Source: Patescibacteria group bacterium
Lineage (GTDB): Bacteria; Bacillota; UBA4882; JAAYXC01
DNA: 52,187 nt
Assembly (NCBI GenBank): GCA_050260175.1
Contig: JBLNBS010000171.1
Coordinates: forward strand, 1 to 52,187
Direction of reading: 5' to 3'
Shown here: piece by piece, positions 1 through 36,760 of the stretch
Layout of the letters: every line of letters begins with the position of its first letter
Numbering within the stretch: the first letter of the stretch is position 1
Made by a program: the position numbers and the translations under genes
Notes under the pieces: model-generated
Database searches by the model: none
What the model was told of the DNA's origin: nothing
The model's input: the letters and a program-made list of their open reading frames with translations, nothing else

Positions 1-418
1 GATCCTTGCAGGCGTCTTCCCTTGTCCGGAGCAGATCCCTTAAGGCCTCGTGGATTCTATCTGGAACCCAAACCGGTGTCAGAAGTCCACTGCGTAAAAG
101 CTTGGCCAGTTTTTTGGCGTCACGCCGATCGGTCTTGACGCGTTCGTTCGGCCTTCTCGGGGTCAAGGATGGTGCTACGACGACGCAGGCAATACCCATC
201 TTGGTGAGCAGCCGGTATAGATGATAACCGCAAGGTCCAGCCTCGTAGCAGTACTGAATATGTTTGGACTTGCCCAACTTGTTGACCAGCCTGATGAAAG
301 CCTCGTCCGTATTTGGTATCTTGCCGTGTTCGACGGGTTCACCACCGTCGGCAAAAGCCACGGCCACGGAGATGGATTTGTGATGTACATCCAAACCGAC
401 AAATGTGGTAAACTTCAT
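1..418 (-). CDS. IS110-family transposase/bridge recombinase, N-terminal DEDD (RuvC-like) domain; partial, runs off the window start
   Basis: Manual translation from ATG at 418 (RBS AAGGAGG upstream): MKFTTFVGLDVHHKSISVAV...YCYEAGPCGYHLYRLL...VVVAPSLTPRRPNERVKTDRRDAKKLAKLLRSGLLTPVWVP...EALRDLLRTRED. GLDVH, YEAG and KTDxxDA carry the IS110 D-E-D-D residues. It is absent from the ORF track because no stop codon lies inside the window. Confidence 0.93.
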   Translation of the reverse strand, partial: MKFTTFVGLDVHHKSISVAVAFADGGEPVEHGKIPNTDEAFIRLVNKLGKSKHIQYCYEAGPCGYHLYRLLTKMGIACVVVAPSLTPRRPNERVKTDRRDAKKLAKLLRSGLLTPVWVPDRIHEALRDLLRTREDACKD

Positions 419-419
419 C

Positions 420-508
420 TTGCCAGCCTCCTTCGCTTTGTAGCTCTGTACTGAAGAGCTCCTTGCCTCCAGTATAACCTACGTGTTAAGCGATTCGGGG
501 GCTGGCCC
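420..508 (-). ncRNA. Candidate bridge RNA/seekRNA in the IS110 left non-coding end
   Basis: Nested stems on the minus strand: GCCAGCC(506-500)/GGCTGGC(428-422), TCGCTT(493-488)/AAGCGA(438-433), TACTGGAG(474-467)/CTTCAGTA(456-449). The internal loop strands are AACACGTAGGTTA and CAGAGCTACA. A TATAAT box lies just upstream. Confidence 0.65.
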
Positions 509-512
509 TTCC

Positions 513-518
513 ATTATA
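513..518 (-). promoter_or_regulatory. Perfect -10 box (TATAAT) at the IS110 left tip
   Basis: Minus strand reads TAGATATAATGG at the element end. In characterised IS110 elements the -35 is supplied by the right end after circularisation. Confidence 0.6.
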
Positions 519-519
519 T

Positions 520-623
520 CTACTATGTGCAAGCCTTCCCTGGCTGCGGGGTAACGGGTTTCCGCTCCCAGGGCCGAGGCCCTTCCACATAGTAGCGCCG
601 GTCTTCAGGCCGGCGTCGGCCTC
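520..623. repeat. REP doublet (REPIN-like) palindrome with one intact GTAG-type REP at 592-615; the other arm is interrupted by the IS110
   Basis: CTACTATGTGCAAG (520-533) is the reverse complement of CTTCCACATAGTAG (582-595) at 13/14 positions, with further imperfect inner pairing. Then GTAG-CGCCGG-TCTTCAGG-CCGGCG follows. Confidence 0.65.
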
Positions 624-3600
624 AGCGTGCCGTCGCCCTAATCTCGCTCCCTCCCCCATCCTCCCCCGCCCCCACGACCTCCAGATACCTCGGCAACCTC
701 TCCCGCATCTCCTTGACATGGCTGATTACGCCCACCATCCGGTTCCGGTCGTGCAGCTTCTCCAGGGCGCTCATGACCTTGTCCAGCTTTTCCCCGTCCA
801 GGCTGCCGAAGCCCTCGTCGAGGAAGAAGAAGCCCAGCGGATAGCGGCCTCGCAACTGAATCCTCGAGGACAGGGCCAGCGCCAGGGCCAGCGAGGCCAG
901 GAAGATCTCGCCGCCCGAGAGGGAGGCGACGGCGCGGCGGTGGCCGCCGTTGTAATCGTCCCTGATGACGAAGTCGTTCTCGGCCGTATGTTCCAGAGCG
1001 TACCGCTGGCCCGTCAGGCGGCCGAGTTCCCTGGAGGCATCCATGGCCATGTCGCGCAGGTGCTCCTGGGCGAGGAAATTGACGAAGGCCCGGCCGCGCA
1101 GGAGGCCCGCCAGGTCGTCGGCGAGGGCTTTGCGCTTGCCGATCTGCGCTCTCCGCTCTTCCAGTTCCCGCCAGCGACCCTGCTTGGCCTGGAGTTCCTC
1201 CACTCTGTTCTTGGCCAGGATCGCTTCTTCGTTGGCCCGCTTGAGCGCCTCGGCCAACTCATCCCGGCGGGCCTTCACCTGCTCAAACCAGGCCTCGTCG
1301 AATGGCCGGCCGTTGATTTCCATCTCTATGTTCTGGAGGTCGTTCTCGGCGACGGCCACGGCCTTGCGGTGGTTATCGATCTCCCGGCGCATCGCTTCCC
1401 GTTCGGCGGGCGGCAGGAGAGCCGCTTCCGCCTCGTCCGCCGCGGCGTATCCCGTTTCCTTGAGCCCAGCGGCCAGGCGCCCGTCTATTCCGGCCAGGGT
1501 TTTTTGGTTGGTTTGCAGGGCGGCCTTGAGAGCGGCGATGTTCGTGTCGATCTCTCCGAGCGCGTCGCGGGCTGCGGCCTCATCTCGCTTTGCTTTATCA
1601 AGCGCCTGCTGGAGCGCGGCCAACGCCGCCCCCGTCTCCCGGATCAATATGGATAGATCACGGCCGCCGGTGATCTTGGCCAATTCCTTATCCAGATCTT
1701 CGGCCTGAGTCTGAATATTTTTGAGTTCCCCGGCGAGAGCCGTTTCTTTTACCTTCGCGGCCTGGGACTGACCGGCCAGATCCCGCAGTCGCTCCTGCAG
1801 TATATCCTGCCTGGTCAAGAGGTCCCCGCGTTTGGCCTCCAGGGCGTGCAACTCCTTCTCCGCTTCCGCCAGGTCTTTTTTACGCCGCCGCAGGCCTTCC
1901 CGGTCGTAAGGCCCACGGAGGCTTTCGAATTCGGCCAGGGCTGCCATTGCTTGGAGACGCGCCTTCTCCATCTCCGTCTGCGCTTCTCTGGCCAGCGGCT
2001 CGTTATTGCTCCAGTCGTGCCACAGCTTGAGTATCCTGCCTTGCCATTGAATCGCCGCGTCGTATCCAGCCTGCGCCTCCTTGACCGCGGCCTCGCACCG
2101 GTCAAGCTCCTCGGAGGATATCCGCGCCGGTTGCGGGTGTTCGTGCGAACCGCAGACCGGACAGGGTTCGCCGTCGCGCAGCTCGTTTGCCAGGGCTGAA
2201 GCGGAATTCACCATCAGGGCGCGCTGCCGCGCAACCCGTGCTTCCTCCAGATCAGCGGCGGCTTTTGAGAGCACGGAATCGGCCAGGGCTTCGAGATCTT
2301 CCCCCGGTGCGATCTCGCGATCGGGCATCCGCTCGCGCACAGCCGTGACGATCTCGTTCCACCGTTCGTCGACATGGGATCTTCGCCTGTTATGGGTCTC
2401 GCTCGCATCCTTTAATCGTTTCTCCACATCTTCAAGGAGCCGCAGCGCCTCCAGCGCCTGCTCGATGGTCTCTTTTTCCGCCGGGTCGACAGTCAGCTTC
2501 TCCCGGCTCTCGTTCAGCGGCGCCAGGGCGGTTCTTATCCCGGTCAGTTCTTCCTGGACCGCGGCCGTCTCGCGCTCGGCCGCGCCGGCAGCCTTGGCCG
2601 CGGCCTCGTGCTCTTTCCGCTTTGATTCCAGCGCCTGCCGCAACTCCCGCAGCCTGGCGTCCTTCTCCACGGCTTCCTGGAGTTGCGCCTGTCTTTTATG
2701 AAGGACAGGCTGTTCTTCCTCACTCTCCTTCTCCGCCCTCGCCAGCGCGACCCTGGCTTCCTCGTGCTTCTTGGCCGCTTCGGCCCGCTTTGCCTCGGCG
2801 ATCTGAAGTTGAGCGGTCTGATCCTTTATGGCGTCCCCCAATTCCCGCCGCCGCTCGATGGACTCCCGGAGCGGCTCGGCGCGTTCGGCCGCGGACAGTC
2901 TCGCCTCTTGCCCGGCGATCGCTTCGCGCTGCCGTTCCAATTCATTCCGCTTCTCCAGGGCGGCCTGCTTTTTTTGATATAGGCCCCTCAAGGCCTCGGC
3001 GTCCTTGAACGCCTGCTCCGCCCCGTTGTACTTGGCTTGATTCTCGCCGAGCTCTCTCGCTTTATCTTGCAGAGCTTGGCCCGCTTGGGCCACGGCCTCC
3101 TCCGAGCAATCCCCCAGCCCCTGCTCCTCGCCCTCGATCCCCGTCAGCTCCGTCTCGCATTTGGCGGAGACGGCCTTGACCCTGGCCGCCAGCTCGTCGC
3201 CGTATTCCTCCAGGTTGAAGAGGTGCTCGAGCATCCTGGCCCGCTCGGCGCCCTTCAAGCGTAGGAACTGGTCGAACTTGCCCTGCGGCAGGATGACCGC
3301 GCGCGTGAATTCATCGTAGCCGATCCCCAAGATTTCCTGGATCTTGGCGTTGACCTCGCGCGGGTTGCCGGCCAGCACATTCTCGCCGCCGGGCGCCAGC
3401 CTGCGCAGGCGGGCCAGCTTCGCTTCGGCGGTGTCTGGATCCTTGCCCTTCCGCTCGTAGCGCCGCTCGACGAGGTAGACTTCCCCGCCCAGCTCGAATC
3501 GGAACGAGACGTCCAGCGTCTTTTCCAGCTGGTTGATGATGCCGCGCGTGTTGTTGCTCGCCCGGTCCACGCTGCCGTAGAGGGCAAGCGTGATCGCGTC

Positions 3601-3735
3601 CAGGATCGATGACTTGCCGCTCCCGGTGGGGCCGAAGATCCCGAAGAGCCCGTCCGCGCCGAGCTTTTCAAAGTCGACGGCCTGGCTGCCGCGGTAGCTG
3701 TTGAGCCCGGAGAATTCCAGCCTGATGGGCTTCAT
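622..3735 (-). CDS. sbcC: SbcC (Rad50-like) nuclease ATPase subunit
   Basis: Walker A GPTGSGKS, long coiled coil with central CPVC zinc hook, LSGGE signature, Walker B FFLDEGFG; overlaps the sbcD stop (ATGA). Confidence 0.96.
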   Translation of the reverse strand: MKPIRLEFSGLNSYRGSQAVDFEKLGADGLFGIFGPTGSGKSSILDAITLALYGSVDRASNNTRGIINQLEKTLDVSFRFELGGEVYLVERRYERKGKDPDTAEAKLARLRRLAPGGENVLAGNPREVNAKIQEILGIGYDEFTRAVILPQGKFDQFLRLKGAERARMLEHLFNLEEYGDELAARVKAVSAKCETELTGIEGEEQGLGDCSEEAVAQAGQALQDKARELGENQAKYNGAEQAFKDAEALRGLYQKKQAALEKRNELERQREAIAGQEARLSAAERAEPLRESIERRRELGDAIKDQTAQLQIAEAKRAEAAKKHEEARVALARAEKESEEEQPVLHKRQAQLQEAVEKDARLRELRQALESKRKEHEAAAKAAGAAERETAAVQEELTGIRTALAPLNESREKLTVDPAEKETIEQALEALRLLEDVEKRLKDASETHNRRRSHVDERWNEIVTAVRERMPDREIAPGEDLEALADSVLSKAAADLEEARVARQRALMVNSASALANELRDGEPCPVCGSHEHPQPARISSEELDRCEAAVKEAQAGYDAAIQWQGRILKLWHDWSNNEPLAREAQTEMEKARLQAMAALAEFESLRGPYDREGLRRRKKDLAEAEKELHALEAKRGDLLTRQDILQERLRDLAGQSQAAKVKETALAGELKNIQTQAEDLDKELAKITGGRDLSILIRETGAALAALQQALDKAKRDEAAARDALGEIDTNIAALKAALQTNQKTLAGIDGRLAAGLKETGYAAADEAEAALLPPAEREAMRREIDNHRKAVAVAENDLQNIEMEINGRPFDEAWFEQVKARRDELAEALKRANEEAILAKNRVEELQAKQGRWRELEERRAQIGKRKALADDLAGLLRGRAFVNFLAQEHLRDMAMDASRELGRLTGQRYALEHTAENDFVIRDDYNGGHRRAVASLSGGEIFLASLALALALSSRIQLRGRYPLGFFFLDEGFGSLDGEKLDKVMSALEKLHDRNRMVGVISHVKEMRERLPRYLEVVGAGEDGGGSEIRATAR

Positions 3736-4988
3736 GCTACCTTACCCCCGGTTGGCTTGGCCTCATCCTGCGCTTCGGCCGGCGGCTCCTGCGCGTTCAC
3801 CATTTCCAGGAAGAACTTGACCAGCTCCTCCGGCGGATCGACGCCGCGCTCCCGCTGGTGGAAGAGCTTAAAGCGGTCGGCCAGTGACATCTCCGAGAGG
3901 CGGCGGTCCTCAGTCTGAGCGGTCAACTCAGGATAGATGGGCCTGATGCCGATGATGCCGGGGTGCAGCTTGCGCAGCTCGATCAGTTCCGCCGCTTCGA
4001 GCGGATGATCCGACTCCACCTCCAGATCCACCCAGGCTTCCTGGTTCCCGGACTCGGCGCACCAGGCGCGCGCCTCCGCCAGGCTACGCGCCCGCCACCG
4101 CTTGAGCGCCCTGCCGGAACTCAGGCCGACAGATCGCACCTGCGCCTCGCCACCCGGGAGGATGTCCGCAATGACAACCTCCTTGCGCTGATCCGCTTCG
4201 GAGAAGCTGTATGACAGGGGCGACCCGGCATAGCGGCAGGCCCGGGGGGCGTTGTGGACCTGCTGTGGCCGGTGGAGGTGGCCGAGCGCGACGTACTGCG
4301 CCTTCGCCGGCAGTGCCAGCGGCGACACAGCCAAGGCTCCACCAAGCTGCCGCTCGGATTCGCTCCCCGCCCCGCCGAGGGCGAATAGGTGCGCCACCAC
4401 TATGTTTACGGCATCAGGCCTAAAGACCCGATCGGCCCCCGCAAAGAGCCGGCCGACCCGGTCTGAATAGACGAGCTGTTGAGACGCCTCGTCCAGGTCT
4501 TCGGCCAAGACCTCGTTCAGCCTGGACTCGGATGGATAAGGCAGTGCGTAGATAATGACGGGCTCATCCGCGCCGGAGACGCCAAGCTCCAGCCAGCCCG
4601 GCCCTGCGTTGATCCTGTGCACACCGCCAGCCGCCCCCGGGGGAAGCTGTTCTTTGGGGTAACCAAGCAGGGAGATGCCGTGCTTCAGCGCCAGGGGGTT
4701 CGCCGCGTGCAACCGGTCCGGGCTGTCGTGGTTGCCGGCGATGGCGGCCACGGCCCGTTTCCCCCCGCCGGCCAGCCTCTCGAGGGCGTAGTAAAAAAGC
4801 TCCTCGGCCTCGGCGGAGGGGTTGAACTGGTCGAAGACATCACCGGCCACAAGGACGAGATGGACATCTTCCCTGGTAACGATCTCAACCAGCTCATCAA
4901 TGAACTGCGCCTGTTCGGGCAGCCTTGACCTGCCCTCCAGGTTGCGGCCGAGGTGCCAGTCGGATGTGTGCAGGAGCCGCAAGACCAA
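3732..4988 (-). CDS. sbcD: SbcD (Mre11-like) nuclease subunit
   Basis: Metallophosphoesterase motifs HTSDWH, GDVFD, GNHD, GHLH and YAGSP..YSFSE; RBS GAGGAGG. Confidence 0.96.
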   Translation of the reverse strand: MVLRLLHTSDWHLGRNLEGRSRLPEQAQFIDELVEIVTREDVHLVLVAGDVFDQFNPSAEAEELFYYALERLAGGGKRAVAAIAGNHDSPDRLHAANPLALKHGISLLGYPKEQLPPGAAGGVHRINAGPGWLELGVSGADEPVIIYALPYPSESRLNEVLAEDLDEASQQLVYSDRVGRLFAGADRVFRPDAVNIVVAHLFALGGAGSESERQLGGALAVSPLALPAKAQYVALGHLHRPQQVHNAPRACRYAGSPLSYSFSEADQRKEVVIADILPGGEAQVRSVGLSSGRALKRWRARSLAEARAWCAESGNQEAWVDLEVESDHPLEAAELIELRKLHPGIIGIRPIYPELTAQTEDRRLSEMSLADRFKLFHQRERGVDPPEELVKFFLEMVNAQEPPAEAQDEAKPTGGKVA

Positions 4989-12522: not shown

Positions 12523-12625
12523 GCGGCAATCCCCCTGTCAGAATCCTACGTGAGGCGAGGAATCAATGATTAAGGTATAAGGCATCATGCATGGGGCATG
12601 AACCGGCTTGCAACCTCTCATTTTC

Positions 12626-12751
12626 CCTTTCCCCTATTGCCTATTGCCTTTTCCCTTTTCCCTTTTGCCTTTCCCCTTTTCCCTATTGCCTTTCCCCTAT
12701 CGCCTATTGCCTATTGCCTTTCCCCTTTCCCCTTTTCCCTTTTGCCTTTTC
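12626..12751. repeat. Tandem array of 18 in-phase heptamers CCT(A/T)T(T/C)(C/G)
   Basis: Units CCTTTCC, CCTATTG, CCTTTTC, CCTTTTG and CCTATCG counted in register from 12626 to 12751, with degenerate units on each side. Confidence 0.95.
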
Positions 12752-12758
12752 CCTTCTT

Positions 12759-13736
12759 TCAGGCATACAAATCCTCGTATAGCTGCTCTGGCGCGGGATA
12801 GGGACTCTGCCGCGCGAAGGCCGTGGCCTCCTCCACGTCCCTTTTCGCTAAGGCCTCGACCTCAGCCGCCTCGGCTTCGGTGATCACACCGGACGTCACC
12901 AGCCGCCGAGCAAAGGTAGGGATGGGATCGCGCCCCTTCCAGTGGGCCTCCTCCTCTTTGGTCCGATAAACCCGCGGGTCGCTGCGGGAATGTCCGTAGT
13001 AGCGATATGTCTTGCACTCGATAAACGTCGGTCCCCCGCCGTTTCTGGCCCGTTCCGCGGCCCTGGCCACAGCGTCCTTGACCGCCAGGACATCCATGCC
13101 GTCAACGATCTCGCTTGGCATCAGGTAGCCCTTCGCCCGCTCGGCCAGGTCCGTGAGGTTGGTGCAGCGGGAGACGGCGACCGACATGCCGTAAAGATTG
13201 TTCTCGCAGACGAAGACGACCGGCAGCCGCCACGTCGCGGCCATGTTCATCGACTCGTGCGCCGTGCCTTCGTTCGCCGCTCCGTCCCCGAAAAAGCAGA
13301 CCACCACCTGTCCCGAACGCCGCATCTGGGCCGAGAGGGCGGCGCCGACCGCGATGGGGAACCCTCCGCCCACGATGCCGTTGGCGCCCAGGTTACCGGT
13401 ATTCAGATCCGCGAGGTGGAGGCTGCCTCCCTTCCCCTTGCAGCAACCCGTCGTTTTGCCGCAGATCTCGGCCATGAGCTCGGGCAGTTTGCCGCCCTTG
13501 GCGATGGCGTGTCCGTGTCCGCGGTGGGTGCTGGAGATGAGATCGGTCGGTCGGAGGGCCGCGCACGCCCCCACCGCCACCGCCTCCTGGCCCGCGTAAA
13601 GATGAGAGCCGCCCTGGATGTAGTTTTCGGCCAAGAGATCCATGACCGTGGCCTCGAAGAACCTGATCTGGTGCATCTGGCGCAGCATGCGCACCAGTTC
13701 CTCACGGTCCTCCTTGACCAGCAATTCGTCTGCCAT
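12759..13736 (-). CDS. Acetoin/2-oxoacid dehydrogenase E1 alpha subunit (TPP-dependent)
   Basis: HLYAGQEA, THRGHGH, GKGGSLH, TPP motif GDGA...ENN, YRYYGHS; AcoA/PdhA-like. Confidence 0.94.
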   Translation of the reverse strand: MADELLVKEDREELVRMLRQMHQIRFFEATVMDLLAENYIQGGSHLYAGQEAVAVGACAALRPTDLISSTHRGHGHAIAKGGKLPELMAEICGKTTGCCKGKGGSLHLADLNTGNLGANGIVGGGFPIAVGAALSAQMRRSGQVVVCFFGDGAANEGTAHESMNMAATWRLPVVFVCENNLYGMSVAVSRCTNLTDLAERAKGYLMPSEIVDGMDVLAVKDAVARAAERARNGGGPTFIECKTYRYYGHSRSDPRVYRTKEEEAHWKGRDPIPTFARRLVTSGVITEAEAAEVEALAKRDVEEATAFARQSPYPAPEQLYEDLYA

Positions 13737-34557: not shown

Positions 34558-34607
34558 AACCTAACCCCCGGCCCCTTCCCTACAGGGAAGGGGATGGGGG
34601 TTAGGTT
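34558..34607. repeat. 50-bp near-perfect palindrome (CCTAACCCC..CCCCTTCCC/GGGAAGGGG type)
   Basis: AACCTAACCCCC/GGGGGTTAGGTT and CCCCTTCCC/GGGAAGGGG arms, between divergent GH genes. Confidence 0.7.
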
Positions 34608-36661: not shown

Positions 36662-36760
36662 TTATCACCCTATCTTCCCCGCTGGGGTTTTTTCGTCGAC
36701 GGCAGGGTGAACCCTGCCGCTATACAAGAGCAGGCAAGCCTTCCGTGGCTCCGAGGGTTG

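Follow-up and report, generated by a model that had tools for sequence, protein, structure and literature searches.

The window analysed here (the whole stretch of DNA, 52,187 nt in length with a GC content of 65.3%) carries an ordinary chromosomal set of genes, as seen in a Pfam scan of 40 ORFs. At its left edge lies the first part of an insertion sequence (IS) transposase gene, read on the minus strand, with an sbcC-like gene and its neighbour sbcD upstream (Table 1). The IS gene and the sbcC-like gene are separated by 203 nt (419-621), within which are found an imperfect palindrome and a GTAG hairpin. The AG at which IS and flank meet is located ~100 nt downstream of sbcC, whilst the hairpin, read on the minus strand, is found 6 nt past the sbcC stop codon. 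The window is probably a whole contig, broken off within the IS as a multi-copy repeat would lead one to expect. Within positions 380-720 no sigma-70-like promoter was predicted for the integrated state, nor was there a minus-strand hairpin with a T-run that could terminate sbcC; two terminator-like matches in this interval are on the plus strand, inside the IS.

Table 1. Features at the left end of the window. Arrows give the direction of reading on the minus strand.
Feature	Position	Strand	Description
Transposase N-terminus, DEDD (RuvC-like)	2-418	-	139 codons; gene continues past the left window edge
IS left end (5′ untranslated region)	419-521	-	103 nt including AG; stem-loop and ribosome-binding site GGAGG (431->427)
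Left subterminal inverted repeat	504-514	-	ATGGAAGGGCC, 11 bp; invariant or nearly so across relatives
Left terminal extension	515-521	-	AGATATA, 7 bp; TATAAT (518->513) is a perfect -10 hexamer
AG core dinucleotide	520-521	-	Common to IS and target; forms the closing AG of the near-arm GTAG
Imperfect palindrome	520-595		76 nt; outer arms CTACTATGTG / CACATAGTAG; first two bases are the shared AG
Exact decamer in far arm	578-587	-	TGGAAGGGCC; identical to 10/11 nt of the IS subterminal repeat
GTAG and hairpin	592-615	+	CGCCGG-TCTTCAGG-CCGGCG; GTAG 592-595, hairpin 596-615; 6-7-bp GC stem; single-copy in window
sbcC-like gene	622-3735	-	1037 aa; stop codon 622-624; SMC_N, AAA_23 and SbcC_Walker_B matches
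sbcD	3732-4988	-	Adjoins sbcC-like gene; Metallophos/SbcD_C matches

The ORF at 2-418 matched PF01548 (DEDD_Tnp_IS110, E = 9.3e-20), which bears out the placement of the element in the IS110 superfamily made in the initial annotation. A 376-aa transposase (P0001), encoded on a 1,393-nt contig and containing both PF01548 and PF02371, is identical to the window fragment at 133 of 139 positions (96%). P0001 and each of the closest full-length relatives also have the C-terminal domain PF02371 (Transposase_20), which here falls beyond the window edge. The nearest solved structures are those of ISCro4 and IS621 (E about 1e-6 over the C-terminal domain).

Genome contigs were searched with the 139-aa fragment. 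In total 448 stretches matched, 355 of which were confirmed as relatives, and 80 were retained. The best of these (L001 to L005, together with the truncated L012) share 60-68% identity over the transposase N-terminus. Loci L001-L005 come from Bacillota and Clostridia MAGs, Candidatus Formimonas warabiya and Syntrophomonas. An identical copy of the IS was not found among the genome contigs searched, the best showing 68% identity. Twenty three PLSDB plasmid records matched at 60-80% identity over the coding sequence only, and none covered the left end or the palindrome. Five of the six genes in the best relatives are complete, and the transposases are 372-373 aa in length. That the nearest IS relatives are in Bacillota agrees with the earlier suggestion of a probable Bacillota genome, which is plausible but loose, as the relatives of the E1-beta gene in the window carry mixed labels (87% to a Bacteroidota-labelled MAG; 74% to Mahellales- or Clostridiales-labelled MAGs). 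A CT-rich tandem array (12607-12775), with 14/21-nt spacing and units such as CCTTTTC and CCTATTG, fills the intergenic stretch that separates the dehydrogenase genes for E1-beta and E1-alpha.

A further set of relatives consists of eight copies (L048, L049, L051, L054-L057 and L061), 99.7-99.9% identical to one another, from one Actinomycetes MAG. This 1,509-bp element (~53% amino acid identity) has a 162-nt left end, the repeats GATGGACGC/GCGTCCATC and a TTGACA near its right end. The eight copies have no common flank and no REP-like flank. As they lack a shared or REP-like flank, these copies, from a more distant clade, are uninformative for the window element.

The boundary between IS and flank is sharply defined. 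When the upstream regions were aligned, similarity began abruptly at AG|A(C/T)ATAATGGAAGGGCC, which corresponds to 521->504 on the minus strand of the window (L001-L005 and L012), and the left end is kept from AG inward in 6/6 aligned sequences. In the window and all six relatives the left end has AG before it, and in L001-L004 an AG also comes after the right end. On the minus strand the window reads CACATAGTAG at the junction, then ATATAATGGAAGGGCC. Since similarity to the six relatives stops at AG 520-521, the palindrome lies outside the IS. The initial annotation had the left arm reading CACATAGTAG on the minus strand and then switching to IS sequence directly after a GTAG; the alignment breaks exactly there, so this junction is correct to within the shared AG.

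Inward of the junction, the 7-bp extension reads AGATATA in the window and AGACATA in the relatives. The stem-loop of the left end (506->422, minus strand) has a consensus fold of 19 pairs, 4 with compensatory changes, and in the fold of the window itself the pairing of 422-431 with 497-506 spans the ribosome-binding site. This stem-loop is a conserved 5′-UTR structure and no guide RNA; from its modelled fold, it probably damps translation from read-through transcripts.

The other end of the element was studied in the relatives. These have a left end of about 95-100 nt and a right end of about 335-530 nt. Pairwise BLAST gave a conserved non-coding stretch after the stop codon of ~530 nt in L002 and L004 and ~335 nt in L001, and mean column identity past the stop codon is 70%. 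The right termini of L001-L004 read CTTGACA-N-(G/A)CCCTTCCATATC-AG. The inverted partner of the left subterminal repeat is GGCCCTTCCAT in L001, L003 and L004 and GACCCTTCCAT in L002, set back from the right end by 3 bp plus AG, and the 3-bp extension before AG is ATC in all four. Measured element sizes are 1552, 1740 and 1735 bp. Joining the ends of the relatives gives TTGACA-N17-(A)-CATAAT, in which TTGACA comes from the right end, 17 nt before the terminus in L001-L004, and lies about 17-18 nt from the hexamer of the left end; the TATAAT of the window and the right-end TTGACA of the relatives are candidate halves of a junction promoter. In the Formimonas element, ~2.7 kb of foreign DNA (L003 5503-8215) interrupts the right end and separates its terminal repeat from the guide-RNA region.

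The subterminal repeats, 7/3-bp extensions and short left end, with the long guide-bearing right end of the relatives, point to the IS1111 group rather than the IS110 group. Siddiquee et al. (PMC11187229) describe the IS1111 group as having 11-13-bp subterminal repeats with 7- and 3-bp extensions, a downstream non-coding region and a junction promoter, and Durrant et al. (PMC11208160) describe right ends much longer than the left, with the bridge RNA in the right end. On this sequence architecture, the window element is best placed in the IS1111 group of the IS110 superfamily. IS621 and ISPpu9, which the initial annotation had cited, belong to the IS110 group. For the targeting of REPs (repetitive extragenic palindromes), the proper known analogue would be ISPa11, an IS1111 member (PMC11187229).

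The right ends of the relatives contain a first stem-loop with two internal loops, ~70-125 nt past the stop codon, followed by a second, similar stem-loop. The consensus fold of this putative guide RNA comprises 40 pairs, 7 of them compensatory, across 5 sequences. In three of the four elements with defined ends (L001, L003 and L004) the 5′ loop of the first stem-loop is reverse-complementary to AG and the following 6 nt of right flank; in L002 only 4 nt match. The 3′ loop equals the left flank plus AG exactly, over 6 nt, in L002 and L003, whilst by eye it agrees at 7/9 positions in L004 and over 5 contiguous nt in L001. In the second stem-loop, ATATCAG equals the right-end terminus plus core. 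The loop order, in which the top-strand match lies 5′ of the bottom-strand match, is as described for IS1111 seekRNAs (PMC11187229). One relative breaks the rule. In L005 the left flank is ATAGT-AG, as in the window, yet the 3′ loop reads CCTTTAG; the right subterminal repeat was not found in this locus. Two conserved guide-RNA motifs gave 0 matches each in the window, which fits a right end lying beyond the contig.

Removal of the element from its flanks gives the following reconstructed targets: GAACGAAA-AG-TTGACCATC (L001), GCATTCT-AG-GATTTAAGC (L002), GATGTCG-AG-GGGACGGGGTT (L003) and GGTGTCA-AG-GGGACGGGGTT (L004). These are not symmetric about AG. L012 contains an uninterrupted TTGTCA-AG-GGGACGGGGTTG, an unoccupied site, and the target in L004 is the unit of a tandem repeat that is intact beside the IS. 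These empty sites reproduce the L003/L004-group target and thereby verify the element boundaries in the relatives. The target of this group recurs across three genomes. Dispersed occurrences of TGTC(A/G)-AG-GGGACGGGGTT are seen at L012 3300-3330, L004 3790-3905 and L003 2934-2942 and 8357-8416. In L003 the target forms an arm of a ~60-nt palindrome at the right flank, and the IS sits at the outer edge of that palindrome. The left flanks of L001 and L005 contain no inverted repeat within 265 nt; two are found in that of L002, neither at the junction.

The flank of the window element is itself palindromic, as the initial annotation had noted for 520-595. The outer arms (520-533 / 582-595) are 14 nt long and 93% complementary and the inner arms (538-549 / 562-573) 12 nt long and 83% complementary, whilst folding 510-625 as single-stranded DNA gave -28.1 kcal/mol (z = -4.41), with 0/200 shuffles as good. 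Allowing up to one mismatch, the window has two occurrences of CACATAGTAG and no more, namely 520-529 (-) and 586-595 (+), against 0.35 expected; 2/100 shuffles reach this number. The right arm does continue as described, with GTAG followed by CGCCGG-TCTTCAGG-CCGGCG. Compared with the 80 retained loci, the palindrome gave only short GC-rich matches at chance level. A second palindrome, near-perfect and unrelated in sequence, is present at 34558-34607 in the gap between divergent GH123 and GH4 genes (24-nt arms, 92% complementary, 2-nt spacer). Across the full window Rfam had 0 matches that reached the gathering thresholds, and in E-value mode only two sub-threshold chance matches within 1-1000. 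A match of CRISPR-DR29 to the GTAG hairpin (592-626; 18.1 bits against a gathering threshold of 39, E = 0.87) was taken as chance, there being no array at this position.

Taken together, these data favour one reading, to which we give a probability of roughly 0.7: positions 1-521 (-) are the left part of an IS1111-group element that recombined at AG, guided by RNA, at the outer edge of a palindrome that was already there. Judging from five to six relatives, the complete element would be ~1.55-1.75 kb. Its right end would supply the -35 hexamer, so that a promoter would form only once the ends join as a circle, and would encode a two-loop guide RNA (a bridge RNA or seekRNA). The two internal loops of this guide would each pair with one side of the target, right or left of AG. 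The site would accordingly be chosen by RNA-DNA pairing and not by recognition of the hairpin as such. For the window copy, the left half-target would be ...CACATAGT-AG, and by the rule seen in L001, L003 and L004 one would expect CATAGTAG within its 3′ target loop, and a 5′ target loop that is reverse-complementary to AG and the next 6 nt of the right half-site. The palindrome and GTAG hairpin would most simply be pre-existing intergenic sequence downstream of sbcC. Circle formation and transposition are predicted activities of the window element, read from its sequence.

This reading has its limits. Because the right flank is off the contig, it is the left half of the target that is established, and because the right end, guide RNA and right flank of the window copy lie outside the window, the mechanism is carried over from relatives of only 61-68% identity in the transposase N-terminus. 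The non-matching 3′ loop of L005, beside a left flank shared with the window, counts against it. Moreover, an ordinary host palindrome gives no account of why its far arm should hold an exact copy of the IS-repeat decamer.

The initial annotation had gone further, reading the flank as a REP doublet, made up of a pair of inverted host units (GTAG plus CGCCGG-N8-CCGGCG), the left of which was split by the IS, with CACATAGTAG|CGCCGG as the empty site. Were this so, the 5′ target loop should read CCGGCGCT. We regard this as unlikely. The form is REP-like: a short imperfect palindrome with a 5′ GTAG lies inside a longer palindrome, and the core AG falls within a GTAG. There is also precedent, since ISPpu9 recombines at AG inside REP/BIME clusters (PMC12288879) and ISPa11, of the IS1111 family, targets P. 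aeruginosa REPs (PMC11187229), and the L003 palindrome and the target recurring in three genomes show that this clade uses dispersed or palindromic targets.

However, the likeness is one of form only, and membership of a REP family is not supported within the window. Were REPs as dense here as in E. coli, several should turn up in 52 kb; a sparse family may show none. Allowing up to three mismatches, the 20-nt hairpin has no second copy in the 52,187 bases, and CACATAGTAG is likewise confined to this one locus. The REP-like motifs occur at chance frequency, with 130 matches to GTAGCGCCGG (up to two mismatches) against 119 expected and 5 to CTTCAGG against 7.2 expected. Counting both strands, GT(A/C)G leads into a perfect stem of 6 bp or more at ten sites, and the other nine have unrelated stems. 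When 22 intergenic gaps (3,919 nt) were compared all against all, no family containing the 520-595 locus emerged, and no RAYT or Y1 transposase (PF01797) was found among the 40 window ORFs by Pfam scan. The right half-site of the proposed target, moreover, is drawn solely from the symmetry of the palindrome, whereas the targets of the relatives are asymmetric about AG. The best intergenic match to the palindrome, at 36734-36757 (GCAAGCCTTCCGTGGCTCCGAGGGT), resembles the inner near arm (529-552), with 22/24 window bases matching and one gap. Its score of 33 is above all shuffles when intergenic DNA alone is considered, but coding DNA gives equal or better matches (E = 0.062 window-wide) and it was taken as chance. 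The papers listed by a full-text literature search on IS110 elements and REPs were not about REP targeting in Firmicutes.

A second alternative takes up the decamer. Here the 76-nt palindrome would derive from an IS end, either as a relic or non-autonomous mini-element in tandem sharing the AG, or as a target that mimics the IS end. TGGAAGGGCC has only two exact copies in the window, the IS repeat and the far arm; both are read on one strand, the former 8 nt from the IS end and the latter 8 nt from the arm end. On the plus strand, 577-590 agrees with the L003/L004 right-end repeat at 13/14 positions (p of 0 to 0.02 by shuffling). A 10-mer in common with the first 26 nt of the IS arose in 115/20,000 shuffles of the flank and in 0/5,139 other 100-nt windows, this test having been made after the match was noticed. 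ISPpu9 gives a precedent for both versions, PMC12288879 describing modules bounded by IS-like boxes and a short palindrome common to its left end and REP target, the role of which is there given as not known. On sequence, then, the decamer may leave room for an IS-derived palindrome or a mimicking target. Against this, the likeness is limited to about 14-17 nt, the extensions would measure 8/8 nt where the family has 7/3, the far arm has CT and not AG as its outermost two bases, and the rest of 520-621 is unlike either the left or the right ends of the relatives. No decamer-like motif (up to one mismatch) was found within 400 nt of the ends of the six relatives. Either version of this alternative is distinctly unlikely. 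Longer odds still attach to a third proposal, that the palindrome and hairpin together are a unit of a REPIN- or MITE-like family in an uncultured high-GC Clostridia-like lineage, bearing the IS repeat at the IS offset.

Lastly, the palindrome could lie inside the IS as the target-binding stem-loop of an IS621-like left-end bridge RNA, with the true end near 596-621, and the minus-strand RNA 625->419 does fold into two large stem-loops (-95.6 kcal/mol, z = -5.45), but this is scarcely credible and is contradicted by the end of conservation with six relatives at AG 520-521, by the subterminal repeat lying 7 bp from AG as the family rule has it, by the presence of the two-loop RNA of the relatives in the right end with loops matching the flanks, by the reconstructed and observed empty sites that back the AG boundary in the relatives, and by the finding of nothing above the Rfam threshold.

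The reading of an IS1111-group element at the edge of a pre-existing palindrome can be set beside known systems. With the IS1111 group (ISEc11, ISKpn4, ISPst6 and ISPa11; Siddiquee et al. 2024, PMC11187229, and Durrant et al. 2024, PMC11208160) the element shares a DEDD transposase, an 11-bp left subterminal repeat and a 7-bp left extension, whilst the relatives add the inverted right partner of the repeat and the 3-bp right extension. Also alike are the short left and long right end, the downstream guide RNA and the candidate junction promoter, of which the right-end features come from the relatives, and site-specific insertion without a long target duplication. Its transposase, though, is only distantly related to those of characterised members, and its host is an uncultured 65% GC lineage. 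It resembles IS621 of E. coli and ISPpu9/ISPpu10 of P. putida in recombining at a fixed core dinucleotide, which in ISPpu9 is AG, as here (PMC12288879), in inserting within palindromic extragenic sequence or at its edge, and in having a short motif common to IS end and target. However, those elements carry the guide RNA in a long left end and have no long subterminal repeats, and their targets are proven families of many hundreds of copies (>800 REPs in KT2440), whereas the putative REP here is single-copy in 52 kb.

The flank shares with REP, BIME and REPIN sequences a GTAG followed by a GC-rich imperfect hairpin, an inverted arrangement within a longer palindrome, and an extragenic position after a convergent gene end. 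Unlike those associated with a RAYT, the window shows neither repetition nor a RAYT gene. A spacer of 68 nt separates the two GTAGs, as against <51 bp for clustered REP pairs (PMC12288879). To end at AG on the outer edge of a palindrome is normal for the IS110/IS1111 family.

These data describe an RNA-guided IS1111-type recombinase, as its relatives would have it, in an uncultured and probably Bacillota genome, with a left junction defined to the base. The relatives add natural pairs of guide and target, in which the loops match both flanks in L001, L003 and L004 and the target in L012 is unoccupied. If the palindrome should prove to be a dispersed family bearing the IS subterminal repeat, REP-like repeats would be linked to IS1111 elements, as REPs are to the IS200/IS605-like RAYTs. 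Moreover, if the palindrome and hairpin were a REPIN- or MITE-like unit, IS1111-type recombinases would add recognition of a repeat by protein to that by guide RNA, and such protein recognition may serve in target choice or in mobilising a non-autonomous partner in trans.
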